A stretch of DNA of 23,231 nt from Breznakia sp. PF5-3 (lineage in GTDB: Bacteria > Bacillota_I > Bacilli_A > Erysipelotrichales > Erysipelotrichaceae). The stretch's first letter is position 1. Each line of letters starts with the position of its first letter. The stretch spans positions 1 to 23,231 of the forward strand of contig NZ_JAQFIQ010000036.1 of assembly GCF_029504745.1 (NCBI RefSeq), read 5' to 3'. The notes beneath the pieces were generated by a model, which did not search any database, was not told the origin of the DNA, and worked only from the letters and a program-made list of their open reading frames with translations. The position numbers were made by a program, and so were the translations under genes. Positions 418 to 22,276 of this stretch are shown here, piece by piece.

Positions 418-446
418 TTGAGAACTTTTCGCAACTTTCAAACGTC
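418..446 (+). promoter_or_regulatory. ECF-sigma-type promoter of the pilus operon: TTGAGAACTTTTC (-35 block), then CGTC (-10) 17 nt after GAAC
   Basis: GAAC at 422-425, a 17-nt gap, CGTC at 443-446. The 13-mer TTGAGAACTTTTC at 418-430 is identical to 8567-8579, with the same gap and the same CGTC. GAAC(TT)/CGTC is the classical ECF promoter architecture. Confidence 0.6.
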
Positions 447-3860: not shown

Positions 3861-3879
3861 AAATATAATGGAGGACAAT

Positions 3880-5019: not shown

Positions 5020-5032
5020 TTAGAATAAAAAA

Positions 5033-6614: not shown

Positions 6615-6653
6615 TGTAATCTTTGAAATTATTTGAAGGAATATGAAACTTAG

Positions 6654-6738
6654 TATCTAATGTGTGAGAAACATCTTTCATACATTAGATATAAGATGGG
6701 CTGGTGTATATTTATTGCACCAACGCATCTTATATCTA
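6654..6738 (+). terminator. Two long overlapping stem-loops downstream of the pilus operon (possible terminator or RNA stability element, no clear U-tract)
   Basis: TATCTAATGT (6654-6663) pairs with ACATTAGATA (6682-6691), with further inner pairs. TAGATATAAGATG (6686-6698) pairs with CATCTTATATCTA (6726-6738). The two hairpins share TAGATA at 6686-6691. Confidence 0.35.
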
Positions 6739-7051
6739 CAAAAACTAAGAAAAATAATGAAGTTTTTTGAAGGTTTCTTGTAATATGGGCTTTTTTATGC
6801 GATATTAATATTAAGAAATGTATATAAAAGCAGCATAATAAAAAAATATAATTAGTTAAATTGCATAATTGGCTTGGGAAGGCACACTATAATTATGCGG
6901 AGGGCAACTTTATCTTTTATATTTTTTTGTTATCTGCTGTTTCACTATTCTTGTTTTTTTAGGGTAGTGAGCGAGCTTTTTGATTTTAGTATCCCGTATG
7001 ACTAAGCCCTCTTATGAAACCATAATTTATAATTTATCAGGAGGGCGAAAT

Positions 7052-8365
7052 ATGAGTGGATTAAAAGCGGAAGAAATTCAAAAATTTATTGATGGTGATG
7101 ATACGGTATATCCTAAGATTTTTGCTGTGTATAAAAACAAAGTTAATTATATGGCCATCAAAATTCTTCGTAATGAAGCAGATTGTGAAGAAGTAGTGCA
7201 AAATACGTTTATTAAAGTATTCGAAAAAAGAAAAGATTTAAAAGATGCGAGTGCATTTAATACATGGATCTATCGAATTGCATACAATGCTAGTTTAGAT
7301 TTATACAGAAAGAATAAACGTAATTTAAGTAGTGATAATCATGATGTAGAAGAATTATCAGATTCTACAAGAGATACAAATTATGAAGTTAAAAAACATA
7401 CGATTTTGGAGTCTGTTCGTTTACAAATCGAAAGTTTACCAAAAGAGCTAAAAGAAATCTGTGATCTATGGTTTCTTTCTGGATGTAGCTTGGAAGAAAT
7501 TTCAGGTATTTTAAATGTGCCAAAAGGTACGGTTAAAAGCCGTTTACATCGTGCACGAAAACAACTACGTTCTGATTTGCAGAGGCAAGAGATAACCCCC
7601 AGGACGTTTTTAACGTTGTCGTTTCCAACCTTTGCATACCGGATATATGTTTCTATGATTGAAACACATAAGATTACAGCAGCATCAGGTGCTAGAATCA
7701 TGCGAAAGATTGAGGAAGCTACCAACGTCTCTGTAGATGCACTGGCATCTGCAATTGGAAATAATTCACTTGGAAGAGCAAGTATTGGAACTTTTGTATT
7801 ACTTTCATCTTTGCTACTTGGAGGTTTGGGAGCAGCAGGCGTGATGAATCCTACAGATACATCGGCAAAAAATATTACAGAAGTGATGTATCTAGATGAG
7901 ATAACGAATAAGAATTTACAAATTGGGATAATCTTTGATGGGACGATTAAGGCAAAGGATGTCAAAGTAACTCTTAATGGCAAGAAGATAAAGCTTGATG
8001 TTGTTGACAAAGATCGGTGTACTTTTATAGCTAGTGAAAATGGGCAGTATGTAATTAAATATAAGAATTCCAATGAAGAAATTGAAATAAAGAATATTGA
8101 TAAATCAGCACCTGTTTTATTAGGGATATCGGCAGATGATGGATTAATTAGTTTAAGTGCAGAAGATAATCATTCAGGGATTGACTTTGAAAAATCTTAT
8201 GTAGAAGCAGGCGATAAAAAAATATCATTAGTAAAGATTGATGAGAAGAATTTCTATTTAAGTGATGCATTAGAAAAAGATGCGACAGTGAGGTTTTATG
8301 ATATTGCAGGGAATTATGAAACTTACAAAATAAATGTTGAAAAAAAGATTAGTAGTACAGAATAG
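7052..8365 (+). CDS. ECF (group 4) sigma-70 factor fused to a TM helix and an extracytoplasmic Ig-like domain (single-chain sigma/anti-sigma-like sensor)
   Basis: GGAGGG at 7040-7045 sits 6 nt before the ATG at 7052; the track start at 6980 is a TTG with no SD. Region 2: EEVVQNTFIKVFEK...FNTWIYRIAYNASLDLYRKNKR. Region 4.2: LPKELKEICDLWFLSGCSLEEISGILNVPKGTVKSRLHRARKQLR. TM helix IGTFVLLSSLLLGGLGAAGVM (7784-7846). The C-terminal ~170 aa is beta-rich and ends with a RFYDIAGNYETYKINV motif typical of bacterial Ig-like domains. Confidence 0.85.
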   Translation: MSGLKAEEIQKFIDGDDTVYPKIFAVYKNKVNYMAIKILRNEADCEEVVQNTFIKVFEKRKDLKDASAFNTWIYRIAYNASLDLYRKNKRNLSSDNHDVEELSDSTRDTNYEVKKHTILESVRLQIESLPKELKEICDLWFLSGCSLEEISGILNVPKGTVKSRLHRARKQLRSDLQRQEITPRTFLTLSFPTFAYRIYVSMIETHKITAASGARIMRKIEEATNVSVDALASAIGNNSLGRASIGTFVLLSSLLLGGLGAAGVMNPTDTSAKNITEVMYLDEITNKNLQIGIIFDGTIKAKDVKVTLNGKKIKLDVVDKDRCTFIASENGQYVIKYKNSNEEIEIKNIDKSAPVLLGISADDGLISLSAEDNHSGIDFEKSYVEAGDKKISLVKIDEKNFYLSDALEKDATVRFYDIAGNYETYKINVEKKISSTE

Positions 8366-8416
8366 CAATATAAAAATTTATAATATATACAAAATGAGGG
8401 CGGCAAAAAATTTATA

Positions 8417-8458
8417 AAAAAGGATTTTCGCTTTTGATGATGATCCTTTTTATTTTTG
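8417..8458 (+). terminator. Rho-independent terminator after the sigma gene
   Basis: AAAAAGGAT (8417-8425) pairs with ATCCTTTTT (8443-8451), followed by ATTTTTGG. The loop is rather long at 17 nt. Confidence 0.5.
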
Positions 8459-8566
8459 GAATTATATTACCTTTCTAGTCTTAAACGCTTTATTTATGCA
8501 GTAATATTGAGTTTTTATGAAAGTATAAATAGGTGGAAAATAATAAGATAAGACGAATTTATTTTT

Positions 8567-8595
8567 TTGAGAACTTTTCATAAAATGCGGTCGTC
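8567..8595 (+). promoter_or_regulatory. ECF-sigma-type promoter of the cohesin-dockerin operon (second copy of TTGAGAACTTTTC-N-CGTC)
   Basis: GAAC at 8571-8574, a 17-nt gap, CGTC at 8592-8595. The 13-mer at 8567-8579 is identical to 418-430. It lies downstream of the sigma-gene terminator and 26 nt upstream of the ATG at 8621. Confidence 0.6.
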
Positions 8596-8620
8596 CCTAA
8601 AATAGAGAGGAGAATTGGAT

Positions 8621-11600
8621 ATGAAAAAAGTTATATCTAGCTTACGTAAATTTGGTTTAGGTTCTTTAGCTTTTTGCATGGCACTTGGAATGGCATTAAC
8701 GAATATTAATGCAATTGATAGTAGTTCTGAGATAAGTGTAAAAAATGAAATTACTTATAACGATGATAAAGCGCAAGCGACAATTCATTTAGATGTGGCA
8801 CAAGAAAACGAAAATGTTGAAGTGAGTAAAGTGTTAGATCCAAATGAAAATGAAATGAGTCTTGATGACTTAAACTATGTAGTCGATAACAACGCTACTT
8901 ATACATTTAAAGTAGAGTATCGTATGGAGGATAGTCAAGACCTTCAGACATATGACTATGAAGTTATTGTAAATGACATTATAGACGCAACAAGCAAGGG
9001 CGAGATATCAAGAGGGGCGCTAAGAAGTGATATTAGCACAAGAGCTAATATTCTTGGAGACAATGAGTATATTGTGTATACTCTTGATGAATTAAAAACA
9101 TATGCTGAAATACCAAATGCAACAGTTTATTTTGGAGCGGATATTATTTGGGCATCTGGTACATCTTCAGATAAGAGTATTTCTATTGCAGAAGGTGTAA
9201 CGATTAATGGAACTGATCCTAGAACAGGTATTCGTCATAAATATAGATACGATACAGGTAGTTCAAAATGGGAAGGTTTCCAACTTCGTCAAGATGATAG
9301 AAAAGTAACATTCAGTGATATTGATATTGAGGGAACTGGAGGATATGGTGTAGCAAATGGACATGATTATCGAAGAGTAGTAGTAACATTCCATAATGTG
9401 AATTTCAAAGGTTCAAATGCTCAAGGATTCTATGCTCCAAAAGGTGGAAAACTGATTATGTCAGGAGATACTACTTGGACACAAAAAGGAACAAATCCAT
9501 ATTCAGAAGAGTTTGCAGAAATTACAAACTTAGAATTTGCAGAAGGTGCAAATGTGACAATTGATCATGAATCAAGATTAGGAAAGAGTTACAATTCATT
9601 CTTCTATGCTTCTTACAATGATGATAAATATAAACATATTGACATTACAGTAGGAAAGAACGCAAAGGCAACAATCAAATCAAACAAAGGAATTTTTGCT
9701 GCAAATGCAAATGGTGGAACACACTCAATTACAGTAAATGAAGGTGCAAATTTTACGATTGATCAAACAAACAATACAGACAATGAATGTCAGTTAGCAA
9801 AACCTGGTAACAATTCACCAATTTACATTAGAGTAAAAGATGAAGGTACATTCAATTTCTATTCCAACACAAAAGCAGGGTATGGAATGTTGAATACACA
9901 ACAAGAAAGTGCAATCAATGTTGATGCAGGTGGATCAATCCGTGTTATTAACTATGGTAAAGGTGGAGCTGTCGGTGCAAACAGTACAGCAACATATATC
10001 AACCTTGATACACCTAAATATGCAGAATTTACAAGTCAATCAACATTTCCATTAGAAATGATGACAAGGGGTGGCGGAAATGTAACAGCAAGCAATGCTG
10101 TTGTATTAGCTAGTGCAGATAACAAAGCATACTATAACCTAGGTTATGTACATAACATTGCAATGAACCATAAAAGTAGTAGTAACACTTTAGTTGGTGT
10201 TAATCCTACAACTTGGACTGGTGCATATACATATACAGCAATGCAAAATGGACTTAAGAGTTTAGTGTTTAGAGGGGTTTCGATTGAAATTCAAGAACCT
10301 GTAAAAGATACTGATTCAATTGTGAATGTGAAAACAGAACCAAATGCGAAAGTAACAATTACAGGGACATATGAAGATGGAACACCTTGTGAATTAACAA
10401 AAGTAGCAGATGAAAACGGGGATGTTCAATTTGATTTAGGAGATAAAACACTAAAAGGTGGATCTGAATTATCTTCTAAAGCAACTGTAAATAACGATAT
10501 TGAACTTATTGGAAATACAGTAATTGTAGAAAAAACTCCAATTGAAGAAAAAGTAACGCTTACTGCAGAAGATGCATTCCTTCACCGTGATGATGCGAAA
10601 GCATTAGCTAATGTTGATGGATTAGCATACTACAACAAAGCAAAAGCAGTATTATGGAATAACACAGAAGATACACCTAGTGCATCATGTGCAGACTACG
10701 ACAAGATTAAAGCAGGTGTAATCGGTGTTTACGATGTGACATATTCTTATACGTTACATGAAGAAACAATTACAACAACAGCTAAAATTATTGTTCACAA
10801 TGGAGTACCAACACCAGATGGTGAATATGTATTGACAGCTTCAGATGGATTGATTTCTGAGAGTGAAGCGAAAGCTTTATCTGGAAAAGAGTATAGTTCA
10901 CTTCGTTCATACAACAAAGCTACAGCTTTCAATAAGAAAGGTGAGCAATTTGAGGTAAGTACATTTGTACAACCAGGAGACTGGATGAGTATTACAGATG
11001 GAAAAGTTGGATCTTATAGAGTTTTCTACTCATTTGGTGAAGGCGATAACTTAGTTCAAAAAATAGTTAAGATAACAGTATATGAAGATGGTGGTATCTT
11101 ATCACCAGATGAAGATTTTGTTCTTCATGCATTTGATGCTTGTATCTTAAAAAGTGAAGCAGAAGGATTAAATGTAAAAGAAGATTTAATTCCATATAAC
11201 CGAGGAAAAGTAACATTGGCAAGTGGAGATATTTTAGCGCCTAATGTGAAAGCAGATGATTTCGCAACGATTAAAAGTGGAACACTTGGAAACTATGATG
11301 TGACTTATAGTTATGGAAGTGAAAATAATGCAGTTAGCAAAGACGTAATCGTTAGTGTTAAGAAGAATGGTGGAATTGTTTCACCAGAAAGAGATTTTGT
11401 TCTTTATGCGGAAGATGGAGAAATCTTACAAACCGAAGCAGAAGGTATGGAATCAGAAACAGACGTATTAGATATAGTGAATGGATATGTTGAATTTGTA
11501 GATGGAACTACAGTAGCACCAGATATTTCAGTGGAAGACTTCGATAAAGTACAAGCTGGAAAAGATGGTGATTATAAAGTTACTGTTAGCTACGATGGTG

Positions 11601-11881
11601 TTGAAAAAGAAGTAGAATTGACACTAATTCAAGAATATGAAGCAAGGTATTTATTTGATTATAATAATGATGGAAAAGTAAATAGTGTAGATTATGTATA
11701 TTTCAATGATTTATTTAATAATCCAGATACTGTAACAGAACAAGATTTATTACTTTCTGATGCAAATGGAGATGGATATATAGATATGGTTGATTTAGGT
11801 ATGGTTCACTATTATTTAAACAATCCACAAGCAAAATTAAAAGAAATTAGAATACCAATTGATTTACTTAAAAAGAAATAA
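8621..11881 (+). CDS. Secreted dockerin-bearing adhesin-like protein: N-terminal Ig-like region, beta-helix-like central region, 4 Ig-like repeats, C-terminal type-I dockerin
   Basis: GAGAGGAG at 8604-8611 favours the ATG at 8621; the track start at 8615 is a TTG only 3 nt after the SD. Signal peptide ...GMALTNINA. Recurrent beta-helix-like rungs: EGANVTIDHES, GKNAKATIKSNKG, NEGANFTIDQTNN, DEGTFNFYSN, DAGGSIRVINYG. Repeats and dockerin are listed as separate features. Confidence 0.85.
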   Translation: MKKVISSLRKFGLGSLAFCMALGMALTNINAIDSSSEISVKNEITYNDDKAQATIHLDVAQENENVEVSKVLDPNENEMSLDDLNYVVDNNATYTFKVEYRMEDSQDLQTYDYEVIVNDIIDATSKGEISRGALRSDISTRANILGDNEYIVYTLDELKTYAEIPNATVYFGADIIWASGTSSDKSISIAEGVTINGTDPRTGIRHKYRYDTGSSKWEGFQLRQDDRKVTFSDIDIEGTGGYGVANGHDYRRVVVTFHNVNFKGSNAQGFYAPKGGKLIMSGDTTWTQKGTNPYSEEFAEITNLEFAEGANVTIDHESRLGKSYNSFFYASYNDDKYKHIDITVGKNAKATIKSNKGIFAANANGGTHSITVNEGANFTIDQTNNTDNECQLAKPGNNSPIYIRVKDEGTFNFYSNTKAGYGMLNTQQESAINVDAGGSIRVINYGKGGAVGANSTATYINLDTPKYAEFTSQSTFPLEMMTRGGGNVTASNAVVLASADNKAYYNLGYVHNIAMNHKSSSNTLVGVNPTTWTGAYTYTAMQNGLKSLVFRGVSIEIQEPVKDTDSIVNVKTEPNAKVTITGTYEDGTPCELTKVADENGDVQFDLGDKTLKGGSELSSKATVNNDIELIGNTVIVEKTPIEEKVTLTAEDAFLHRDDAKALANVDGLAYYNKAKAVLWNNTEDTPSASCADYDKIKAGVIGVYDVTYSYTLHEETITTTAKIIVHNGVPTPDGEYVLTASDGLISESEAKALSGKEYSSLRSYNKATAFNKKGEQFEVSTFVQPGDWMSITDGKVGSYRVFYSFGEGDNLVQKIVKITVYEDGGILSPDEDFVLHAFDACILKSEAEGLNVKEDLIPYNRGKVTLASGDILAPNVKADDFATIKSGTLGNYDVTYSYGSENNAVSKDVIVSVKKNGGIVSPERDFVLYAEDGEILQTEAEGMESETDVLDIVNGYVEFVDGTTVAPDISVEDFDKVQAGKDGDYKVTVSYDGVEKEVELTLIQEYEARYLFDYNNDGKVNSVDYVYFNDLFNNPDTVTEQDLLLSDANGDGYIDMVDLGMVHYYLNNPQAKLKEIRIPIDLLKKK
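10553..11644 (+). repeat. Four tandem ~91-aa Ig-like protein repeats (coding, diverged at DNA level)
   Basis: Each unit runs [LV]xAxDxxIxxxxAKAL...YN.A.V...G......V...D[FW]..I..G..G.Y.VTYSYG.....K.V.[IV].V. The signatures are GVIGVYDVTYSY, GKVGSYRVFYSF, GTLGNYDVTYSY and GKDGDYKVTVSY. Confidence 0.8.
11651..11824 (+). other. Type-I dockerin module (two Ca-binding loop/helix segments)
   Basis: LFDYNNDGKVNSVDYVYFNDLF ... LLSDANGDGYIDMVDLGMVHYYLNN. Both halves fit the DxNxDGxhxxxD dockerin/EF-hand-like loop followed by a helix. Confidence 0.8.
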
Positions 11882-11924
11882 TGAAGAAAGGAGATTGTTT
11901 ATTTTATAAATAAACAAACACGAT

Positions 11925-13451
11925 ATGAAATTAAAATTTATTAAAAAAGGATTTAAGAAAATCGCTGCTCTAGGGTTAGTGATGGCTGTGTTGATTCCTA
12001 TTGTTGGGAATGTTACTTCTTCAATAACAGCAGCTCAAACACCTTCATTTGACGTAGAGCCTACGATTACAATTACAAGAAATGATGGTGGTGGACTATA
12101 TTATGGAACACACGAACAAGAAGAAAGTTATGTAGATAATGGAAAACAATATTACCGTGATGGAGATATTATTCAAGTAGAAGTATCTTTACCGCAAGGA
12201 CATGGGTCATCAGCAGTATTTAATGTTGTGAAATATGATAATGAAAAATTACAATTATTATCAACAATGGATCATATTAAATATTCAATGGCTTCAAATT
12301 ATATGAATGCAGGATGGGATCCAGCAGTTGGATACTATGAAGGAGAGACAAACCAAATCTCAACAATATCAACAGGACCTGCAAATGAATTTGAAGGTGG
12401 AAATATTGCTGTAATGTATTTTAAAGTTAAACCTGGAGTTGAAAGTACAAAAGGAACAGATATTACATTCGAATTTCCAAACTTTAATAGTGCAACAAGA
12501 ATTGAAGGGGAAAGAATGCCTGTTAATAACCATAAAGGTTTTATAGCAGGAGATGAATCAACATATGAATATCACCCTGAATCAATTACAATTCAAGCGA
12601 AAACACCTTCTGCTCCTGAACCAGCAGTAAAACCTACATTGGAATTAACTGCTAATACAGTAACAGTTTATGAAGGAGATATTGTAAACCCTAAAGATTA
12701 CATAAAAAAAGCAAGCTGTACAAGTGATGCAAATGTTAATAAAGATAGTGTTGTAATTACTGGTGGAACTGATGAAACAGGAAAACATCAACCTGTAGCA
12801 GGAAACTATGAATTTACATATAAAGTAACAAATGCATCAAATGAAACAACAGAAAAAACATTGAAATTAAATGTTTTAGAAAGAACATACACTGTAAAAT
12901 CAGTAGAAACAGCTGGTCAAGGATTGAATATTCCTGCTGGAACAACAGATGCTGAATTCGAAGAAATTCTTGAAGGTCTTTTAGGTAAAGAATTTGTTGT
13001 TAATGTAGAAGGAAATGATGGATCTAAGTTTAAAGTTAAAGGAACTGTTTTCGGTGGAGAAACTGATGAATACGAAATTGATGGAAATGATGTTTTAACA
13101 ACACAAACATTTAATATGAAATTAGATTTATTATTGCCAGCAGTAGTATATAACGAAAATGGTGAAAGAGAAATCGTTTCATTACTTGGAAGAGCTGGTT
13201 TTGCTAGTTTAATCGATGATGGAACAGCAGAAGCAGTAATTAAAATTAGAGTTGGTGCAGGTTCAACAACACCAGGAAATGATTCTACAGGATCAAATAA
13301 TGGATCTACAGGTCATGCATCAATTGCTGCAGGTAATTCTGGAGCAGGAACAGATACAGGAGATACTACAAACACAGCAGGATTTATGACATTATTGGCA
13401 TTATCTGGACTTGTATTGGTAGGAACTAAATTAAGAAAAACATATCGCTAA
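11925..13451 (+). CDS. Cell-surface anchoring cohesin protein: signal peptide, cohesin-like module, Ig-like domain(s), Ser/Thr/Gly-rich linker, C-terminal sorting-signal-like tail
   Basis: Signal peptide ...NVTSSITAAQ. Cohesin-like module at 12039-12599. Ig-like domain ending AGNYEFTYKVTNASNETTEKTLKLNV. C-terminus GTDTGDTTNTAGFMTLLALSGLVLVGTKLRKTYR, i.e. xxDTGD, a hydrophobic stretch and a basic tail. No good SD before the ATG at 11925. Confidence 0.8.
   Translation: MKLKFIKKGFKKIAALGLVMAVLIPIVGNVTSSITAAQTPSFDVEPTITITRNDGGGLYYGTHEQEESYVDNGKQYYRDGDIIQVEVSLPQGHGSSAVFNVVKYDNEKLQLLSTMDHIKYSMASNYMNAGWDPAVGYYEGETNQISTISTGPANEFEGGNIAVMYFKVKPGVESTKGTDITFEFPNFNSATRIEGERMPVNNHKGFIAGDESTYEYHPESITIQAKTPSAPEPAVKPTLELTANTVTVYEGDIVNPKDYIKKASCTSDANVNKDSVVITGGTDETGKHQPVAGNYEFTYKVTNASNETTEKTLKLNVLERTYTVKSVETAGQGLNIPAGTTDAEFEEILEGLLGKEFVVNVEGNDGSKFKVKGTVFGGETDEYEIDGNDVLTTQTFNMKLDLLLPAVVYNENGEREIVSLLGRAGFASLIDDGTAEAVIKIRVGAGSTTPGNDSTGSNNGSTGHASIAAGNSGAGTDTGDTTNTAGFMTLLALSGLVLVGTKLRKTYR
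12039..12599 (+). other. Cohesin-like module A
   Basis: GDIIQVEVSLPQGHGSSAVFNVVKYDNEKLQLLS and GGNIAVMYFKVKPGVESTKGTDITFEFP match the cohesin pattern (GDxVxVxVxL ... F.h.YDp..Lehhs ... G.hA.h.FKV...G...I.F). Paralogous to modules B and C. Confidence 0.65.
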
Positions 13452-13486
13452 TTTATAGCAGAAAGAAAAGCATTTGAAAGTGGTGA

Positions 13487-13513
13487 GAAAAGGAAGTCTG
13501 GACACTCCTTTTC
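13487..13513 (+). other. Intercistronic stem-loop (GAAAAGGA / TCCTTTTC), possibly a partial terminator or mRNA-processing/stability element
   Basis: A perfect 8-bp stem (13487-13494 with 13506-13513) and an 11-nt loop, followed by CATTGCTTTTCG, which is only a weak U-tract. Located between the stop at 13451 and the ATG at 13539. Confidence 0.35.
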
Positions 13514-13538
13514 CATTGCTTTTCGAGAAAGGACATTT

Positions 13539-16500
13539 ATGAAAAAGATTATCATGAAAAGTCTTGTTCTTCTGCTAGCAATTACAACTATATTACCAAT
13601 GAGTGGTATTACGGTTGCAGCAGCGGAAGGAATAAAGACAGATATTACCATTACACGTAATAACGGAAATGGTGCTTATGGGGAACATACGCATCCATCA
13701 TACGTTGAAGATGGTGTTCAATATTATCGTGAAGGCGATATTATTGAATTGGATATTGCATTGCCTGCAAATCATGGGGCATCAGAACTTTGGAACGTAG
13801 TAAAGTATGATCCAACACAAGTAGCAGTTGTATCAACAAAGCTAAATGTTCAAAGTACGCTTGGTGATAATTATCGGGCAAAGGGTTATGAAGCTAATAC
13901 AAATTTAGCTTATCAAGGAACACAGGGATTAATATCAACTACGATTGTGCGTACATTCTATGGAAATGATGCACCTGATTTTGATACAGCTGGAGGAACA
14001 ACAGCTAAAATTTATTTTAGAGTTCTTAATGATGTGGAAACAGTAGAAGGAACAGAAATTACATTTGAATTTCCAATTTTCCAAGCAATCAGTAGAACTA
14101 GTATTACCGATTATGAATTTATACACGAAGGATTTGATGCGAATCGTTATGCGGAAACAAGAACTGTAAGTTTAGAATCACAAACGATTATTGCGAAAAA
14201 ACCAACGGTTGATTTTATTGCAGAGGATGGATTCATTACACGTAGTCAAGCACAAGCAATTGGTGAAAGTGCAGATTTAAAACCTTATAACTTTGTTAGT
14301 GCTACAGCAAGTGATGGACAAGAAGTGGCAGTAAAAGCAACAACAAGTAGTTTAGATACAATTAAGGCAGGAACATTGGGAACATATGATGTTACTTATT
14401 CATATACATTTGAAGGAACACCAATGTCAAAAACAGTAAAACTTACAGTTGTTGAAAACGACGTAGTTATTTCTGAAGATAGAACGGTAGCTTTAAGAGC
14501 GGATAGTGTTATCTTGACACAAACACAAGCAAAAGCCTTATCTGCAAAAGAAGCATTGCTTCCATTAAATAATGTATTTGTATACTTATCAAATGGAACA
14601 ACAGCAACAGCAAATGTTGATGTACCAGAGTTTGATAAGATCAAAGCAGGTACAATTGGTACATATAATGCAACATATTCTTATGGAATAGATAAAAGTT
14701 TTGCATCAAAAACAGTAAATGTAGTTGTTGTAAAAGATGGATCTGACATAAGCGATAATAAAAAAGTTTCCTTATATGCAAAAGATGGTTTTATTAGAGA
14801 GTCACAAGCAAGAGCATTGTCACTACGTTCAGCCGTAGCACCATATAACAGTGCTGTAGTAACATTAGCGGATGGATCAACTACAACTCCAACAACAGAA
14901 ATTGAAGCAAATGCTTGGAATAAGATGAGAGCTGGAACATTAGGAACATACAATGTATATTATCACCATGGAACAGGTGATAGTGAAGTTGAAATGAATG
15001 TGAAAGCTACGGTTATTTCAGATGATGCAGTTGTTTCAAAAGATGAAACAGTTAGTTTAGTAGCGGATGATGTTGATATGTATCAAGAAGATGCAAAAGC
15101 GCTTGGTAAAGTGGATGATTTAATTGATTACGCAAATGCTGAAGTAACACTATCAGATGGTACAAAAGTAGCACCTAGTGTAGAAACAGATGATTTTGAT
15201 AGTATCAAAGCTGGAATCATTGGTGAATATGAAGTTACATTTAAATATGGTGAAGGTGATAGTGCTGTTGAAAAGACAGTAACAATTACAATAAAAGAAG
15301 ATTTAAGACATTTAATCTCAGCTACAGATAACTTTATTACTCAAAGTAAAGCACAAGAATTAACTTCAAAAGAAAGTTTACGTGCAGTGAATTCAGTTAG
15401 TGTAACAGACTATAATGGTGTTGACCAAGATGCAGTTGTAACAACAAGTGACTTTAATACAATTAAAGCAGGAACTTTGGGAAGCTACATAATTACTTAT
15501 AGTTATGGTACAGGAACAAAAGAAGTTTCAGTTACTGCAAAAGTAAATGTTATTCCTGATGATTCTATTGTTGATGGTGATGTAAGTTTATATGCAAGAG
15601 ATAAAGCGATTACAGTAACACAAGCAAAAGCATTGAATACGAAAGAAGACCTAATTCCATATAATGAAGCATCTGTAAGATTGCTTGATGGAACTACACC
15701 AGCACCAAGTGTTGCAGTTTCTGTAGGCGATTGGTCATTGATAAACAGTGGTAAAGAAGGTTCTTATAATGTTACTTATAGTTATGGAACGGTTTCAAAG
15801 ACAGTAAAGATTACAGTTGTAAAAGATGGCTCTGAAGAGTCTGAAGACAAAACAGCAACATTATATGCGAAAAATGCTTTTATAACCGTATCAGATGCAA
15901 AAAAAGTTAGCAATAAGACGCAATTGATTCCATACAACAAAGCAGAAGTAGTATTGGCGAGTGGTGATAAAAAAGTGCCAGATGTGACGATATCAAATGA
16001 TGATTTATTAGCAATTAGTGCAGGAACAATTGGTGGCTATAACGTACTTTATTCATACGGTAGTGGAAAACAACAAGTACAAAAAATGGTAAAAATAGTT
16101 GTAATTGCAGATGATCCGATAATTTCAGAAGATGAAAGTGTTGCGTTGAGTGCAAATGATGAAGAAATTGATGATGCAGCTGCTAAGAAATTAACAAGTA
16201 GAAACGAATTGATTGATATTAGTAATGCAGTGGTTACTTTCGATGATGGAACAACACAAGCACCTACATTAGCGGTTGCTGATGAAGATTGGGATGCAAT
16301 ACGTTCAGGGAAATTAGGTACATATTCATTAACATATTCTTATGGTACATTAGGAAATAAAGATTATGTTACAAAAACAGTAAGTTTGACAGTAGTGAAA
16401 CTTACAGAAGACCGTACTTTATTTGATTACAACAGAGATAATATAATTAATAGTGTGGATTACATGTATTTCCATGAGTTATTCAATAATCCTCAATTTG

Positions 16501-16634
16501 TGACACCAACAGATGTATTGTTGTCTGATGCAAATGGTGATGGATATATTGATATGGTTGACTTAGGAATGATTCATTATTATGTGAACAATCCAAAAGT
16601 AAAACCTCCAACTATTAAAGTACCAATAGGTTAA
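13539..16634 (+). CDS. Scaffoldin/adaptor-like protein: N-terminal cohesin-like module, 8 Ig-like repeats, C-terminal type-I dockerin
   Basis: SD GAGAAAGGA lies before the ATG. Signal peptide ...GITVAAAEG. Module, repeat and dockerin evidence is listed under separate features. Confidence 0.85.
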   Translation: MKKIIMKSLVLLLAITTILPMSGITVAAAEGIKTDITITRNNGNGAYGEHTHPSYVEDGVQYYREGDIIELDIALPANHGASELWNVVKYDPTQVAVVSTKLNVQSTLGDNYRAKGYEANTNLAYQGTQGLISTTIVRTFYGNDAPDFDTAGGTTAKIYFRVLNDVETVEGTEITFEFPIFQAISRTSITDYEFIHEGFDANRYAETRTVSLESQTIIAKKPTVDFIAEDGFITRSQAQAIGESADLKPYNFVSATASDGQEVAVKATTSSLDTIKAGTLGTYDVTYSYTFEGTPMSKTVKLTVVENDVVISEDRTVALRADSVILTQTQAKALSAKEALLPLNNVFVYLSNGTTATANVDVPEFDKIKAGTIGTYNATYSYGIDKSFASKTVNVVVVKDGSDISDNKKVSLYAKDGFIRESQARALSLRSAVAPYNSAVVTLADGSTTTPTTEIEANAWNKMRAGTLGTYNVYYHHGTGDSEVEMNVKATVISDDAVVSKDETVSLVADDVDMYQEDAKALGKVDDLIDYANAEVTLSDGTKVAPSVETDDFDSIKAGIIGEYEVTFKYGEGDSAVEKTVTITIKEDLRHLISATDNFITQSKAQELTSKESLRAVNSVSVTDYNGVDQDAVVTTSDFNTIKAGTLGSYIITYSYGTGTKEVSVTAKVNVIPDDSIVDGDVSLYARDKAITVTQAKALNTKEDLIPYNEASVRLLDGTTPAPSVAVSVGDWSLINSGKEGSYNVTYSYGTVSKTVKITVVKDGSEESEDKTATLYAKNAFITVSDAKKVSNKTQLIPYNKAEVVLASGDKKVPDVTISNDDLLAISAGTIGGYNVLYSYGSGKQQVQKMVKIVVIADDPIISEDESVALSANDEEIDDAAAKKLTSRNELIDISNAVVTFDDGTTQAPTLAVADEDWDAIRSGKLGTYSLTYSYGTLGNKDYVTKTVSLTVVKLTEDRTLFDYNRDNIINSVDYMYFHELFNNPQFVTPTDVLLSDANGDGYIDMVDLGMIHYYVNNPKVKPPTIKVPIG
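13626..14207 (+). other. Cohesin-like module B
   Basis: GDIIELDIALPANHGASELWNVVKYDPTQVAVVS and GGTTAKIYFRVLNDVETVEGTEITFEFP. Collinear with modules A and C, including the shared YV[DE][DN]G.QYYR[DE]GDII. Confidence 0.65.
14208..16400 (+). repeat. Eight tandem ~91-aa Ig-like protein repeats, same family as 10553-11644
   Basis: Signatures GTLGTYDVTYSY, GTIGTYNATYSY, GTLGTYNVYYHH, GIIGEYEVTFKY, GTLGSYIITYSY, GKEGSYNVTYSY, GTIGGYNVLYSY and GKLGTYSLTYSY. Each is preceded by [VL]xLxAxDxxI..xxAKAL and followed by K.V.[IV].V[VI].D. Confidence 0.85.
16419..16592 (+). other. Type-I dockerin module
   Basis: LFDYNRDNIINSVDYMYFHELF ... LLSDANGDGYIDMVDLGMIHYYVNN. The second segment matches the dockerin at 11651-11824 at 24 of 26 residues (my own count). 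Confidence 0.8.
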
Positions 16635-16661
16635 AACATTTTTAAAGAAAGGGCGATTCAT

Positions 16662-17882
16662 ATGAAAAAAAGATTTATAAAACTAGCAATAATAATTTTT
16701 ACTATATCAATAACTATACCACCCAAAATAAATATCTCTGCAGAAGTAAATAAGAACTTAGTTGGAGATCAAAATTGGGTTAACAATGAAACGCCTATTT
16801 CTAAGCTGGGAGCCTTAGTCGAGAAATCGACTAGGGTTCTTAGTGCAAATGTTATGAATCACAATGTAGCGAATTCAAGAGCATTAACACCGTCATTTGA
16901 TGTAGCACCGATTGTTGAAATATCAAGAAATGATGGTGGCGGTGTATATGGTAGTCCAAAATATGATAGCTATGTAGAAAATGGGACACAGTATTATCGA
17001 GATGGTGATATTATACGTGTAAAAATATCTTTACCTGCTGGTCATGGATCGACAGGTTACTCTAATGTGATAAAATACGATTCATCCAAATTACAGTTGG
17101 TGTCGGATTTTAATGCGATTAGAAGTTCTATAGGGAAAAACTATACAGGATGGGATGCATATGCAGCATATTATAGTGGGGATAAAAACTGTATTCGTCA
17201 TTATGCTGTTTCACAATCACAAGAATATCAAGGTGGACAAGTGGCAACCCTTTATTTTAGAGTTCGAACAGGTACGGAAACAGAAGGTGGAACAAATATG
17301 GTATTTGAATTCCCAATGTTTCAATCAACAACAAAATTGGCTGGGGATGAATATCCAATAAAAAACCATCGTGGTTATAATGCAGGTGATCCATCAACTG
17401 AATATATGACAGTGGGAAGTGTTTCTATTCAGTCCAAGAAACCGTCAAATAACGGAATTGGGACGAACCCTTCTCAACCAGAAAAGCCAGGACCTGGAAA
17501 ACCATCTATCACTCCAGGGATAAATACAGATAAAGAAAAAGTTATCAATGAAAATTTTACTCCTGAACAACTTGAAAAAATAGCTGAAATTAGTAGCAAG
17601 TATCTGTATTCACTTGATCGTCTTTCAAATGGAATTTATGGTCTTGATGAATATGATTCAATATTAAAAGATTTACGTTCAAAAGGTAATACATCTTCTG
17701 GGGTACGTTATAAAAAATCATCTTTTGATAACAAAGGAATCATGGGTAGTAAGAATAGCATATCAAGCGGTTCTTCAAATTACTATATGCTTTTCTTATT
17801 GTTGAGTATTTTGGTTGTAATTATGACGTTATCTTATGATTATTATGAAGATCGTAAATTAAAAGAAAAGTTGGAGGACTAA
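16662..17882 (+). CDS. Membrane-anchored cohesin protein: signal peptide, cohesin-like module, Pro-rich linker, unknown ~90-aa region, C-terminal TM helix
   Basis: SD GAAAGGG lies before the ATG. Signal peptide ...PPKINISAEV. Cohesin-like module at 16887-17438. Linker NPSQPEKPGPGKPSITPG. C-terminal YYMLFLLLSILVVIMTLSY followed by the charged EDRKLKEKLED. No LPXTG-like motif. Confidence 0.8.
   Translation: MKKRFIKLAIIIFTISITIPPKINISAEVNKNLVGDQNWVNNETPISKLGALVEKSTRVLSANVMNHNVANSRALTPSFDVAPIVEISRNDGGGVYGSPKYDSYVENGTQYYRDGDIIRVKISLPAGHGSTGYSNVIKYDSSKLQLVSDFNAIRSSIGKNYTGWDAYAAYYSGDKNCIRHYAVSQSQEYQGGQVATLYFRVRTGTETEGGTNMVFEFPMFQSTTKLAGDEYPIKNHRGYNAGDPSTEYMTVGSVSIQSKKPSNNGIGTNPSQPEKPGPGKPSITPGINTDKEKVINENFTPEQLEKIAEISSKYLYSLDRLSNGIYGLDEYDSILKDLRSKGNTSSGVRYKKSSFDNKGIMGSKNSISSGSSNYYMLFLLLSILVVIMTLSYDYYEDRKLKEKLED
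16887..17438 (+). other. Cohesin-like module C
   Basis: TPSFDVAPIVEISRNDGGGVYG (compare TPSFDVEPTITITRNDGGGLYYG in module A), GDIIRVKISLPAGHGSTGYSNVIKYDSSKLQLVS, and GGQVATLYFRVRTGTETEGGTNMVFEFP. Confidence 0.65.
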
Positions 17883-17883
17883 T

Positions 17884-18063
17884 ATGGCTACATTATATTT
17901 AATAATATCAATTATCATATTTATATGTACTTGTTTCTTTTGTTTTATATACTTACGAAGAAGAAATGCAATGCGTCGTGAAGCATTAGCGATTTATGAA
18001 GAAGTGCAAAGACATCAATGTATAAAATCATCTAGTTCAAAACCATTGGAAGAACGTGTATGA
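17884..18063 (+). CDS. Small (59 aa) single-pass membrane protein, absent from the supplied ORF track
   Basis: GGAGG at 17873-17877 sits 6 nt before the ATG at 17884, which follows the upstream stop (17880-17882) by 1 nt. My translation is MATLYLIISIIIFICTCFFCFIYLRRRNAMRREALAIYEEVQRHQCIKSSSSKPLEERV. The TGA at 18061-18063 overlaps the next ATG at 18060 (ATGA). Confidence 0.6.
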   Translation: MATLYLIISIIIFICTCFFCFIYLRRRNAMRREALAIYEEVQRHQCIKSSSSKPLEERV

Positions 18064-18512
18064 AAAAAATAAGTATAGTTATAGCAATGATGCTTTGCAT
18101 TCTTATCGGATGTGAAAGTAATGAAGAAAAAAAGACCGTATGTGAAAATTTGCAAATTGAAGATTCTGCAATTAGAGAACAACATCAGATTTATTATATA
18201 CAGGATGAAGTTAGTAAAATTGAAATGACCAATACATTTGATCTAACAAAAACTAGTATTCAAGAAAATTCTTTAGATTCATATAAAGAAAGTATGGAAG
18301 CGCGATATAAAGGTGCAAAAGGAATTACCTATTCTTTTGAATCTAACGATAATGATTTCAAAGAAATCCTTGTTTTTGAGATTAGTGATGATAATTTAAA
18401 AGGTACTTTGATGCAAAATTTATTACTTACATATTATGGAGTTGAGGATAATAATCTTGATGCAAAGACGATTATCAAGCATTTAAAAGACAAAGGAATG
18501 AAGTGTAAATAG
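18060..18512 (+). CDS. Lipoprotein of unknown function (possibly YehR/DUF1307-like)
   Basis: Lipobox MKKISIVIAMMLCILIGC/ESNEE. About 130 aa of mature hydrophilic protein. Last gene of the cohesin-dockerin operon, translationally coupled to the small ORF. The family assignment rests only on size and loose pattern. Confidence 0.7.
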   Translation: MKKISIVIAMMLCILIGCESNEEKKTVCENLQIEDSAIREQHQIYYIQDEVSKIEMTNTFDLTKTSIQENSLDSYKESMEARYKGAKGITYSFESNDNDFKEILVFEISDDNLKGTLMQNLLLTYYGVEDNNLDAKTIIKHLKDKGMKCK

Positions 18513-18520
18513 TGATGTAT

Positions 18521-18550
18521 AAAGAGTATTGATATCAATACTCTTTTTTT
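18521..18550 (+). terminator. Rho-independent terminator ending the cohesin-dockerin operon
   Basis: Palindrome AAAGAGTATTGATATCAATACTCTTT followed by a T-run (CTCTTTTTTTGC). Confidence 0.8.
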
Positions 18551-18873
18551 GCTTTATATAGAGTTCAATAATTCCAGAAAAGTGCAAAAACTACCACCTC
18601 AATATACACCAATCATAAAATATATTATAATGTAGGTGAAAGGAAGGAGAGGACTAGAATGGTAAGAAATTTATTTTTTAATATGAGTGAAATAGTGGAA
18701 TACAATAAGTCTATACTCCTTATGGTGGACAAAAGCCGTATTTCCTAATTCTTCGTTAGTAGCGAAGTAAAAGATAAGTATATGAGAAGGATGAGTATTA
18801 TTATATAACACATTGAAAATCAAAACGGTATATAAGAGCATAATAAGAAATGATTCATTCTTTTCATATCAAA

Positions 18874-19003: not shown

Positions 19004-21355
19004 ATGGAGCTAAAACAGAGTAGTCGAATTGCTATTTTAAAAGAGAAAATGCTTTCGCAAAAACGGTATGTAAGTATTGAGCAAGCAAAAATCATTACGG
19101 ATGTTTATAAGCGAAATGAGAATAAACCAATGATATTAAAGAGAGCATTGGCTTTAAAAGAAGCGCTTGAATATATTGAGATAGGAATTGAACCAGAAGA
19201 ACAAATTGTTGGTAATCGTACAAAGGGAGTTCGCTCAGGAGTAGTGTTTCCTGAAGGTGGCTGTTCTTGGGTAGATAGGGAATTGGAAACCTTGCCTAAA
19301 AGACCACAAGATAAATTTCATGTTCATCCAGAGGATATTCAAACCTTTAGAGAAGTAATATTACCATATTGGCAAGGAAAATCATTAGAAGATGTAATTG
19401 CATATCGTGGTGGTGAACAGATAACTGCGATTTCAAAGGTCGCGAAAATTAATCAAACGGATCATGCACAAGGGCATATTTGTCCCAATTGTGAGACGTG
19501 GTTAGAAAAAGGGCCGGCAATTTTAAAGGCAGAGGCATTAGCTAAAATAGATAGTGCACCAGCTGAGCAAAAGGATTTTTATGAAAGTATTGTGATTGTA
19601 ATGGATGGTGCAATCATGTTTATGCAAAGATATCGTGATTTATTAAAAGAAACAGCAAGTAGGGCTGAGAATAAAGGATATAGAGAAGATTTACTTAACC
19701 TGTCAGGTATTTGTGATCGACTGAGTAAATACCCTGCACAGAGCTTCCATGAAGCTGTACAATCAGTTTGGTTTTTGTTTGTAATTTTACAGATGGAATC
19801 AAATGCTTCTTCTTTCTCTCCGGGACGAATGGATAAATTTTTATATCCATATTATCGTAATGATATTGATCATCACATAATAGATGATCAGCAAGCTTTA
19901 GAACTCATAGAATCGATTTGGCTAAAGTTTAATCAAATTGTGTATTTACGAAACAAAAGTGGGGCGAAATATTTTGCTGGTTTTCCGATTGGCTTCAATA
20001 TTGCTATTGGTGGATTGGATGAAAAAGGAGAAGCTTATGAAAATGAATTATCTTATTTGTTTTTAAAAGCACAAGAACACTTAGGGTTGCCTCAACCCAA
20101 CCTTTCGCTGAGATTGAATCATAAGACAAGTGATAAACTATTAAAAGCATCTATTCATGTTGTTGCCAAGGGAAGTGGAATGCCACAGTTTTTCAATGAT
20201 GAATGTATTGTTCCTGGAATGATTGATTTAGGAATTGAGAAAAAAGATGCTATGGACTATGCGATTGTAGGATGTGTAGAACTAACAACCCAAGGAAACA
20301 ATTTAGGTTGGAGTGATTCTGCTATGTTTAATTTTAATAAAGCATTGGAATTAACTCTAAATCATGGAACCTGTTTGATTACCAATCAAAAGTTGGCACC
20401 AGATTTTGGTGGTTTAGAAATCTATGACACTTACGAAGCATTAGAAATAGCATTTGAAAAGACCATTGATTTTTATATGGAACAGATGATTGCATGTTGT
20501 GAAATTGTTGAAAAAGCTCATATTGATATTCTTCCTTCACCGTTTCTTTCTTCAGTGATTGACAATTGTATGGAAAAGGGAGTTGATGTAACAGCAGGAG
20601 GAGCAAAATATAATTTAAATGGAATTCAAATGATTCAAGTAGCAAATCTAGCTGATTCACTTGCAGCATTAAAAAAACTTGTCTATGAAGAAAAACGAAT
20701 TCAAAGAAAAGCTTTATTAAATGCATTACAAACAAATTTCGAAAATAATGAAATCATGCGTCAAATATTACTAAACAAGGTAGATAAGTATGGAAATGAT
20801 GTAGAATGGGTAGATACATTAGGTATCACATGGGCAAAGAAGTTTAGGAATAAATTACGTTCATTCAAAAATTATCGTGGTGGTGTTTATCATACAGGTA
20901 TGTATACAGTAAGCGCCCATGTTCCTATGGGAGAAAATGTAGGAGCTAGTCCAGATGGGAGGTTCTCACAAACACCTTTAGCAGATGGGGGGATGTCAGC
21001 TGTATATGGAAGGGATACAAAAGGTCCTACTGCGGTGTTTAAATCTGTGTCTAGGATAGATAACGATCTAACAACCAATGGTGGGTTGTTGAATATGAAG
21101 TTTTTACCAACGTTCTTCAAACATGATACAGGCATTGATAAATTTTCATCATTTTTACGTTCATTTGTTGATTTGAAAATTCCTCATGTGCAGTTTAATG
21201 TTGTTTGTAAAGAAGATTTATTGGCTGCCCAAGAGCATCCAGAACAATATCGTTCATTGACGATTCGAGTTGCTGGATATACAGCATACTTCACGGAATT
21301 GGCAGGGGAATTGCAAAATGAAATCATTGCAAGAACAAGTTATGAAGATATCTAA
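19004..21355 (+). CDS. Glycyl radical enzyme of the PFL2/1,2-eliminase class, YbiW/PflD-like (candidate anhydrohexitol-6-phosphate C-O lyase)
   Basis: 783 aa. C-terminal glycyl-radical fingerprint TIRVAGYTAYF (RVAGY at 21266-21280, Gly codon 21275-21277). Single-Cys loop AIVGCVELT (Cys codon 20273-20275) with the adjacent Glu typical of dehydratase/eliminase GREs, not the CC of pyruvate formate-lyase. Followed by an activase and an FSA-type aldolase. Confidence 0.85.
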   Translation: MELKQSSRIAILKEKMLSQKRYVSIEQAKIITDVYKRNENKPMILKRALALKEALEYIEIGIEPEEQIVGNRTKGVRSGVVFPEGGCSWVDRELETLPKRPQDKFHVHPEDIQTFREVILPYWQGKSLEDVIAYRGGEQITAISKVAKINQTDHAQGHICPNCETWLEKGPAILKAEALAKIDSAPAEQKDFYESIVIVMDGAIMFMQRYRDLLKETASRAENKGYREDLLNLSGICDRLSKYPAQSFHEAVQSVWFLFVILQMESNASSFSPGRMDKFLYPYYRNDIDHHIIDDQQALELIESIWLKFNQIVYLRNKSGAKYFAGFPIGFNIAIGGLDEKGEAYENELSYLFLKAQEHLGLPQPNLSLRLNHKTSDKLLKASIHVVAKGSGMPQFFNDECIVPGMIDLGIEKKDAMDYAIVGCVELTTQGNNLGWSDSAMFNFNKALELTLNHGTCLITNQKLAPDFGGLEIYDTYEALEIAFEKTIDFYMEQMIACCEIVEKAHIDILPSPFLSSVIDNCMEKGVDVTAGGAKYNLNGIQMIQVANLADSLAALKKLVYEEKRIQRKALLNALQTNFENNEIMRQILLNKVDKYGNDVEWVDTLGITWAKKFRNKLRSFKNYRGGVYHTGMYTVSAHVPMGENVGASPDGRFSQTPLADGGMSAVYGRDTKGPTAVFKSVSRIDNDLTTNGGLLNMKFLPTFFKHDTGIDKFSSFLRSFVDLKIPHVQFNVVCKEDLLAAQEHPEQYRSLTIRVAGYTAYFTELAGELQNEIIARTSYEDI

Positions 21356-22265: not shown

Positions 22266-22276
22266 AAGGAGATATT

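Follow-up and report, generated by a model that had tools for sequence, protein, structure and literature searches.

Introduction

Cohesin and dockerin modules are, to our knowledge, common outside cellulosomes, and it is almost never known what they assemble or why. Described here is an operon of six open reading frames (ORF1 to ORF6) from a 23,231-nt stretch of DNA (the window, that is, the whole stretch that was analysed) of an unclassified Breznakia (Erysipelotrichaceae), an insect-gut bacterium, for example Breznakia sp. PF5-3. Three of its proteins (ORF2, ORF3 and ORF4) each begin with one divergent cohesin, two (ORF1 and ORF3) end in dockerins, and no recognised enzyme is encoded among them. 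With a probability of about 0.6, this operon specifies a non-covalent, enzyme-free surface fibre for adhesion that is built on a tip/shaft/base plan.

In how the assembly would work, the closest described system is the type III ScaE/ScaB/CttA system of Ruminococcus flavefaciens, where ScaE is a sortase-anchored single-cohesin protein that holds an adaptor scaffoldin and a non-enzymatic dockerin adhesin. Both have an anchored single-cohesin protein (putatively so in Breznakia), an adaptor with cohesin plus dockerin and a non-catalytic dockerin-bearing adhesion protein. Unlike R. flavefaciens, however, the Breznakia operon lacks a multi-cohesin scaffoldin, a dockerin-bearing enzyme and any recognised carbohydrate-binding module (CBM); its cohesins are too divergent for Pfam; its putative anchors are of two kinds (a non-LPXTG tail and a transmembrane (TM) helix); it has Big_3-like stalks and its own fused extracytoplasmic function (ECF) sigma factor; and its host is one of the Erysipelotrichaceae rather than a fibre-degrading ruminococcus.

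By profile and fold, the best matches are the type II cohesins of Acetivibrio cellulolyticus ScaB and Clostridium thermocellum (3l8q, E 2e-7; 3ghp, Foldseek E 1e-5). As the X module does in type II X module-dockerin pairs, an Ig-like module directly precedes the Breznakia dockerin; yet identity is 12-21%, the TM-score is about 0.5, and the Breznakia system has no S-layer homology anchors and is not cellulosomal. The closest non-cellulosomal precedent is Clostridium perfringens, also a gut-associated member of the Bacillota, whose cohesins (2jh2, 2vo8 and 2w1n) are among the fold matches and whose large secreted glycosidases resemble a dockerin-bearing glycoside hydrolase family 31 (GH31) protein found at one related locus. 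In C. perfringens both partners are enzymes, whereas the partners in the Breznakia operon would be anchors, a stalk and a non-catalytic head.

Peer et al. 2009 (as cited in PMC10066038) made a survey of non-cellulosomal cohesin-like and dockerin-like modules, giant dockerin-bearing proteins of Omnitrophota have been proposed as adhesins (PMC10066038), and a corrosive Methanococcus has cohesins (PMC11452385); roles in surface attachment have been suggested for such modules (Peer et al. 2009, in the form cited in PMC10066038; PMC11452385). Unlike these cases, which are mostly isolated and have no defined set of partners, the Breznakia operon encodes putative anchors, adaptor, tip and regulator in one conserved unit. 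Sortase-assembled pili, such as the one encoded at 559-6614 of the window, share the tip/shaft/base logic and the Ig-like stalk domains, and here the pilus genes are adjacent and probably co-regulated; but pilus subunits are joined by isopeptide bonds, whereas the Breznakia subunits would be joined by non-covalent cohesin-dockerin contacts, and there is no sequence homology between the two. No such cohesin-dockerin system was found in the literature on Breznakia or Erysipelotrichaceae. The class of non-cellulosomal cohesin-dockerin systems is thus already known; what is new is that these cohesins form an unannotated subfamily and belong to a complete cassette that has its own regulator and no enzyme.

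Divergent cohesins at the N termini of three proteins

The six genes, the first four of which encode large proteins with signal peptides (locus tags M2475_001742-45 in Breznakia sp. PF5-3), are as follows:

8621-11881, plus strand: ORF1, proposed tip/cargo protein, 1086/1088 aa (ATG; alternative upstream TTG at 8615)
11925-13451, plus strand: ORF2, proposed anchor 1, 508 aa
13539-16634, plus strand: ORF3, proposed shaft/adaptor, 1031 aa
16662-17882, plus strand: ORF4, proposed anchor 2, 406 aa
17884-18063, plus strand: ORF5, small TM protein, 59 aa
18060-18512, plus strand: ORF6, DUF1307-like lipoprotein, 150 aa

The cohesin modules, together with the evidence for each, are located at:

12039-12599, plus strand: cohesin of ORF2 (profile and AlphaFold model)
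13626-14207, plus strand: cohesin of ORF3 (family hidden Markov model (HMM), E 8e-66)
16887-17438, plus strand: cohesin of ORF4 (family HMM, E 2e-64; Pfam Cohesin 15.2 bits, sub-threshold)

An earlier reading of the window, made from its sequence only, had described three paralogous N-terminal modules at these positions and had called them cohesins, and both descriptions hold. The modules, each of about 187 aa, align with pairwise identities of 39-50%, and BLASTP between those of ORF2 and ORF3 gives E 4e-36. None of the three reaches the gathering score of the Pfam Cohesin model (PF00963; 24.1 bits), with ORF4 at E 0.026 and ORF2 and ORF3 giving no hit; homology to solved cohesins is present when a family profile is used. 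Because the Pfam score stays below threshold, the cohesin call rests on profile and fold evidence.

A profile of the three modules, searched exhaustively with HMMER against 1.84 billion representative proteins, matched only 25, of which 19 belong to the same family. In each of the other six (E 6e-8 to 5e-4), Pfam finds more than one Cohesin domain, at 50-230 bits, and in several of them Dockerin_1 as well. CheY-like matches of the three-sequence profile were rejected as chance, for they vanish or are outranked with a deeper profile. A 20-sequence family profile matched the solved cohesins of A. cellulolyticus ScaB (3l8q, as above; 3fnk, E 6e-5; 3ghp, 1e-4; 4u3s, 1e-3). By profile, then, type II cohesins are the nearest solved ones; the fold matches are spread over types I to III.

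Structure prediction, which the sequence-only reading had proposed as a check, was run on the ORF2 module and gave a cohesin beta-sandwich. The AlphaFold2 model built from the 20-sequence alignment reached a predicted local distance difference test (pLDDT) of 93.8 and a predicted TM-score (pTM) of 0.89; a run on three sequences only (pLDDT 55.7) was discarded. When this model was compared with the PDB by Foldseek, every one of the top 50 matches (probability 1.00; E 1e-5 to 8e-4; TM-scores 0.39-0.51) was a cohesin; types I, II and III were represented, as was C. perfringens, and the ScaE cohesins 2zf9 and 4iu2 were among them. Identity to the solved cohesins was 12-21%. The modules have family-specific extensions, of about 35 residues ahead of the canonical first strand (with RNDGGGxYG...SYVENGxQYY) and about 35 after the core, which account for the moderate TM-scores. 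The modules are divergent cohesins, forming a subfamily that current domain models overlook. In keeping with this, the NCBI names of the three cohesin carriers are 'hypothetical' or 'bacterial Ig-like domain-containing', and only ORF1 is named for its module ('dockerin type I repeat-containing protein'). Since the domain models miss a whole subfamily, censuses of cohesins and dockerins in gut Bacillota are likely to be underestimates.

Dockerins and Ig-like stalks of ORF1 and ORF3

The dockerins and the repeats that precede them were mapped as follows:

11654-11821, plus strand: ORF1 dockerin, aa 1014-1069 (Pfam Dockerin_1, 34.4 bits)
16422-16589, plus strand: ORF3 dockerin, aa 962-1017 (Pfam Dockerin_1, 32.8 bits)
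10544-11608, plus strand: four Ig-like repeats of ORF1, aa 644-998 (phmmer with one repeat)
14172-16349, plus strand: eight Ig-like repeats of ORF3, aa 212-937 (phmmer with one repeat)

Both dockerins lie above the gathering score of Pfam Dockerin_1 (PF00404; 22.9 bits), and the calcium loops are intact in both segments of each, following the pattern D-x-N-x-D-x-x-x-N/D-x-x-D (DYNNDGKVNSVD or DYNRDNIINSVD in one segment, DANGDGYIDMVD in the other). Of the former description as 'textbook type-I dockerins', the dockerin part stands; the label 'type I' comes only from the title of the Pfam model. ORF1 and ORF3 share 69% identity across their dockerins, where segment two (LLSDANGDGYIDMVDLGM-HYY) differs by a single conservative V/I change. 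As read from the sequence, the two segments of a dockerin are asymmetrical, with SV/ND against MV/HY at positions 10-11 and 17-18. A word-indexed protein search gave nothing useful with the module alignment and, with the dockerin alignment, one generic dockerin of 106 aa, but this search missed the window's own proteins and so does not indicate absence.

ORF1 runs from a signal peptide through a variable head (about 610 aa; aa ~30-640) and the four Ig-like repeats to the C-terminal dockerin. In ORF3 the signal peptide is followed by the cohesin, the eight Ig-like repeats and the dockerin; in both, the last Ig-like module stands directly ahead of the dockerin. The repeats, which Pfam sees as partial Big_3 (51.7 bits in ORF3), number 12 across the two proteins, the same count as had been read by eye from the translations.

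Conservation of the cassette in related loci

At least seven further loci carry the cassette; they come from Breznakia pachnodae DSM 16784 (L003), a Breznakia metagenome-assembled genome (MAG; L004), a Thomasclavelia-labelled MAG (L006), three Logan assemblies (L005, L008 and L009) and a further sample (L010), which is from the same accession series as samples with the window's proteins. L003 and L004 were located by a scan of genome contigs with a seven-sequence module alignment; the same scan with ORF4 alone gave no match. A Breznakia single-cell genome from a cockroach holds one near-identical fragment.

The conserved order begins with the fused ECF sigma gene (sometimes preceded by an S26 peptidase gene), followed by the dockerin cargo and a cohesin protein with a sorting tail (~510 aa), and continues with a cohesin-Ig-dockerin protein (~1030-1060 aa), a cohesin-TM protein (~340-406 aa), a small TM peptide and a DUF1307 lipoprotein. 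L006 departs from this order, its cargo gene being upstream of that for the sigma factor, and the fetched part of L010 shows no cargo gene. Each complete locus has exactly three cohesin and two dockerin genes by the family HMMs. In every locus the carriers hold exactly one cohesin each, and no multi-cohesin scaffoldin was found. The layout of anchor, adaptor and payload that had been drawn from the window is therefore real and conserved, and the arrangement of cohesin, dockerin and ECF sigma genes, whose recurrence had been posed as a question, is found in Breznakia and in the Thomasclavelia-labelled MAG, although in L003 and L004 the pilus operon is not adjacent.

In neighbour-joining trees, the cohesins of the pachnodae-like loci fall into three classes of orthologues and their dockerins into two. 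The window lineage and L006 differ: there, paralogues of the same genome (in the window, the cohesins of ORF2 and ORF4 and the dockerins of ORF1 and ORF3) are more closely related to one another than to the orthologues at the equivalent positions. Such homogenisation within a genome could reflect gene conversion or co-evolution of partners.

These patterns bear on whether the modules still bind dockerins. They might instead be structural or ligand-binding beta-sandwiches on independent surface proteins that happen to share an operon, as would fit their sub-threshold Pfam scores, the 12-21% identity, the TM-scores of 0.4-0.5 and the family-specific extensions; for many non-cellulosomal cohesin-like modules we know of no established function. 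Yet the cohesin modules and the family dockerin subtype co-occur strictly, in the same operon at every locus examined, the parallel homogenisation of the two is what is expected of interacting partners, and a partnerless dockerin would have no evident role. Given the strict co-occurrence of the two module types, loss of binding is regarded as very unlikely.

Two side observations concern further copies of these genes. The window strain has a second, paralogous ORF3-like protein (P0009; M2475_001695), about 47 locus tags from the cassette. L010 carries at 1319-9448 a second type of cassette, which consists of a DUF1307 gene, a 214-aa gene, an S26 gene, the sigma gene and three cohesin genes, with no cargo gene between the sigma gene and the first cohesin gene.

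Absence of recognised enzymes and the variable head of ORF1

That the cargo holds no recognisable glycoside hydrolase, lyase or esterase had been judged from the translations, and the profile searches agree: in the six operon proteins no family of these three kinds, and no CBM family, was found with Pfam and NCBIfam, even at E≤1. Nor does Pfam give a catalytic family in the cargo proteins of L003, L004 and L008. A conventional small cellulosome was therefore rejected, with no enzyme or CBM found in the operon and one cohesin per protein.

The stalk and dockerin of the cargo can be aligned between species at 38-39% identity, while nothing is alignable before about residue 580 and the ORF1 head gives no alignment with the heads of its Breznakia counterparts; the head is thus the variable part of ORF1. 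A variable head on a conserved stalk is the usual pattern of adhesins. The head matches PF20585, the 'putative pectate lyase-like adhesive domain', weakly (E 0.002; 18.7 bits against a cut-off of 24.3), and this sub-threshold match is what supports the beta-helix adhesin-like region described earlier in ORF1. The N-terminal domain of Listeria LCP is a second weak match (E 7e-6, well under the cut-off). Searches with the head found no match among PDB sequences or, by tblastn, in plasmids, and a word-indexed protein search returned nothing useful, although the latter missed the window's own proteins and so does not indicate absence.

The strongest rival of the fibre reading is that the operon is a platform for enzyme display, in which the main ligands of the anchor cohesins would be glycoside hydrolases that carry dockerins and are encoded elsewhere in the genome, with ORF1 and ORF3 as accessory subunits for scaffolding or substrate targeting. 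Its best evidence comes from L008, where a 2334-aa protein with GH31, two F5/8 type C, fn3 and Big_2 domains is encoded directly downstream of the cohesin cluster (11477-18481 of that locus) and has an internal Dockerin_1 (aa 1120-1179; 29.3 bits, above threshold). The resemblance of the ORF1 N terminus to the Listeria 'cellulose-binding protein LCP' points the same way, and C. perfringens joins large glycosidases through cohesin-dockerin pairs. However, the dockerin of the GH31 protein is of a different sequence style and is missed by the family dockerin HMM at E≤1e-3, and no adjacent enzyme with a dockerin was found in the examined loci other than L008. Moreover, the set of three cohesins and two dockerins per locus is fixed, and the dockerin proteins of the operon have no catalytic domains. 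Enzyme display as the main role is accordingly considered unlikely.

Two putative anchors in ORF2 and ORF4

13353-13448, plus strand: sorting-signal-like tail of ORF2 (DTGDTTN, hydrophobic stretch aa 485-503, basic KLRKTYR)
17766-17846, plus strand: TM helix of ORF4, aa 369-395 (hydropathy scan)

Two of the cohesin carriers had been read as cell-anchored, and the features behind that reading are present in both. In ORF2 the signal peptide and cohesin are followed by two uncharacterised domains, a G/S/T/N-rich spacer and the tail, and the C-terminal part has the architecture of a sorting signal, with a hydrophobic segment and a basic extreme C terminus after a low-complexity wall-spanning region. 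The tails of ORF2 orthologues have GTGD, ETGD, KTGD or PTND instead of LPXTG; five of six share the consensus x-T-G/N-D-T/S-T-N, the tail of L006 reading KTGDYSP.

In ORF4 the order is signal peptide, cohesin, Pro/Gly-rich linker, conserved juxtamembrane segment and C-terminal TM helix, and the helix is found in ORF4 and all its orthologues. As a side observation, the juxtamembrane segment, about 70 aa long with the pattern ...YSF...L.G.N.Y..I...L... and located between the Pro-rich linker and the helix within aa 260-368 (17439-17765), is conserved in all ORF4-like proteins and has no Pfam match.

A membrane-tethered sigma factor, a shared candidate promoter motif and the pilus operon

The candidate regulator of the operon and the sites that it may read are located at:

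7052-8365, plus strand: gene of a membrane-tethered ECF sigma factor, candidate regulator (alternative start 6980; 461-aa ORF)
7778-7849, plus strand: TM helix of the sigma factor (aa 267-290 of the 461-aa ORF), followed by an extracytoplasmic domain of ~170 aa
8571-8595, plus strand: candidate ECF-type promoter, GAACTTTTC-N12-CGTC, in the 13-nt box TTGAGAACTTTTC
422-446, plus strand: second copy of the candidate promoter motif; the first pilus gene (ATG at 559) begins 113 nt downstream
559-6614, plus strand: sortase-pilus operon (DUF7601 tip-like protein, S26 peptidase, Spy0128/FctA pilin, sortase and second FctA pilin)

The sigma factor scores above the cut-offs of Sigma70_r2 (46.4 bits), Sigma70_r4_2 (44.7 bits) and TIGR02937 (93.7 bits), and of the sigma-70 regions it has 2 and 4 only, as ECF sigma factors do. 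Its TM and extracytoplasmic parts are fused to the sigma part, and no separate anti-sigma gene is present; it looks like a one-component, membrane-tethered type. Orthologues with the same fusion along their full length (35-43% identity) are found beside the cassette in L003, L004, L006 and L010.

Just upstream of ORF1, the sequence GAGAACTTTTC-N12-CGTC at 8571-8595 resembles an ECF promoter, the usual boxes being 'GAAC' at -35 and 'CGTC' at -10 in the B. subtilis consensus of sigW, sigX and sigM; with B. subtilis as the reference, this site is a putative promoter. Alignment of the sites at 422-446 and 8571-8595 shows the identical 13-mer and further shared bases downstream. Two matches to GAACYTTT-N11-14-CGTC are present in the window, where shuffled sequences predict 0.01, and each lies directly upstream of an operon. 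This statistic is partly circular and indicative only, as the pattern was refined after the sites had been seen. In L004 the motif is found upstream of the sigma gene, of the ORF2-like gene and of the small-TM/DUF1307 genes, and in L008 upstream of the cargo gene, with a GAACTTTC variant upstream of the ORF2-like gene; near-variants are present in L003, upstream of the sigma gene, and in L006.

As the ECF sigma gene sits between two operons that share the 13-nt -35 box, a single regulon is suggested, and in the window strain the cassette and the pilus operon are probably co-regulated. The sequence-only reading had singled out the placement of the cassette beside a pilus operon and a sigma factor. 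Both neighbours were confirmed. Relatives share the sigma link, but the pilus link is strain-specific: the pilus operon is not adjacent in L003 and L004. Adjacency to the pilus operon was hence rejected as a conserved part of the system, the genes upstream in L003 and L004 being housekeeping genes.

Some minor features of these neighbours were also recorded. The sorting motifs of the pilus subunits (3200-3324, 4900-5019 and 6500-6614) are IPDMG, IPPMG and PSTGD rather than LPXTG, and PSTGD resembles the DTGD of the ORF2 tail. An S26 gene lies immediately upstream of the sigma gene in L003 (2747-3337), L004 (4319-4849), L006 (2756-3304) and L010 (1319-1894). The sole S26 gene of the window (3318-3860) lies inside the pilus operon and is unlikely to be an orthologue of these, with 25-35% identity over partial length, and probably belongs to the pilus operon.

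Proposed assembly

From the domain identities, architecture, conservation and motif described above, we infer cohesin-dockerin pairing, an assembly order, an adhesive role and dependence on the sigma factor. The adjacent membrane-tethered ECF sigma factor would direct transcription from the candidate ECF-type promoter. ORF1 to ORF4 would be secreted, with ORF2 held on the cell by its sorting-like tail and ORF4 by its C-terminal TM helix; having a cohesin and an anchor and no dockerin, these two would be the bases. The dockerin of ORF3 would plug into an anchor cohesin, so that the ORF3 cohesin is offered further out. There ORF1, whose dockerin is not accompanied by a cohesin and which would thus end the chain, may serve as the tip or cap and carry the variable head. 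Joined in this way, the proteins would form a non-covalent stalk that depends on Ca2+, comprises at least 12 Ig-like domains and presents a species-variable head, most likely for adhesion to an insect-gut substrate. The adhesive role is suggested by the variable head on a conserved stalk, the weak matches to 'adhesive' domains and the probable co-regulation with the pilus.

Several points weigh against the fibre reading. None of the three modules reaches the Pfam Cohesin threshold, and their dockerin-binding face could have diverged. The tail of ORF2, which reads ...AGTDTGDTTN..., has no LPXTG. The head of ORF1 has no confident annotation, so that it may conceivably possess a novel catalytic activity, and the GH31-dockerin neighbour in L008 hints that enzymes may also be displayed. 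The motif statistics, finally, carry the circularity noted above.

The count of modules also allows for contacts between cells. With three cohesins against two dockerins per locus there are spare sockets, and dockerin-tipped fibres could plug into the free anchor cohesins of a neighbouring cell, giving aggregation or a biofilm; moreover, the cluster seems to share its regulation with a pilus operon, and biofilm formation often involves pili. This arrangement is improbable: the variable head of ORF1 is better explained by recognition of an external ligand, and the C-terminal dockerins are at the cell-proximal end of ORF1 if the head faces outwards.

A more speculative form of the fibre reading is that ORF3 polymerises. 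Because the ORF1 and ORF3 dockerins, at 69% identity, probably share their specificity, the dockerin of ORF3 could bind the cohesin of another ORF3, and head-to-tail polymers of ORF3 would then form the shaft of a 'cohesin-dockerin pilus', with ORF2 or ORF4 as base and ORF1 as cap. Although this extension is doubtful, it would, if true, provide a third route to Gram-positive surface fibres beside sortase pili and type IV pili, and one membrane-tethered ECF sigma factor, responding to an extracytoplasmic signal, would control both this fibre and the sortase pilus.

The fibre reading itself, if true, would describe a non-covalent, modular way of building Gram-positive surface appendages and would supply new orthogonal cohesin-dockerin pairs for protein engineering. 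The parts list is small and complete (two anchors, adaptor, tip and regulator), includes no enzyme and comes from a genus with cultured strains. Owing to this compact parts list and to the cultured Breznakia strains, the role of non-cellulosomal cohesin-dockerin pairs is directly testable here.

Gene layout, small genes and flanking regions

18521-18546, plus strand: intrinsic terminator-like hairpin (11-bp stem and 4-nt loop, then the T-run TTTTGCTTTA; 18521-18556 with the T-run)

The six genes form, as earlier read, one same-strand series (8621-18512), which is flanked by the ECF-type promoter candidate and this hairpin. The intergenic gaps from ORF1 to ORF6 are 43, 87, 27, 1 and -4 nt, respectively. 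The tight spacing of ORF4-ORF6 (1 and -4 nt) bears out the layout on which translational coupling of the last three genes had been proposed and makes such coupling possible. The G+C content of the window is about 33%, and its genes run almost exclusively on the plus strand. The operon DNA had no match in plasmids.

ORF5 has one N-terminal TM segment, and a 44-50-aa gene is found at the equivalent position in L005, L006 and L010. ORF6 has the lipobox LIGC; its DUF1307 match is weak (E 0.008) against 46.4 bits in the L003 orthologue, to which it is 30% identical.

Downstream of the operon, the region 19004-22963 encodes a pyruvate formate-lyase (PFL)-like glycyl-radical enzyme, a radical-SAM activase and a fructose-6-phosphate aldolase/transaldolase of the FSA family. 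A further locus (L001, 12343-20606) carries on with a BglG-type antiterminator, a beta-glucoside phosphotransferase system EIIBCA and a GH1 gene. Together, the downstream genes and their continuation appear to be a sugar-utilisation island that is unrelated to the cohesin-dockerin operon.

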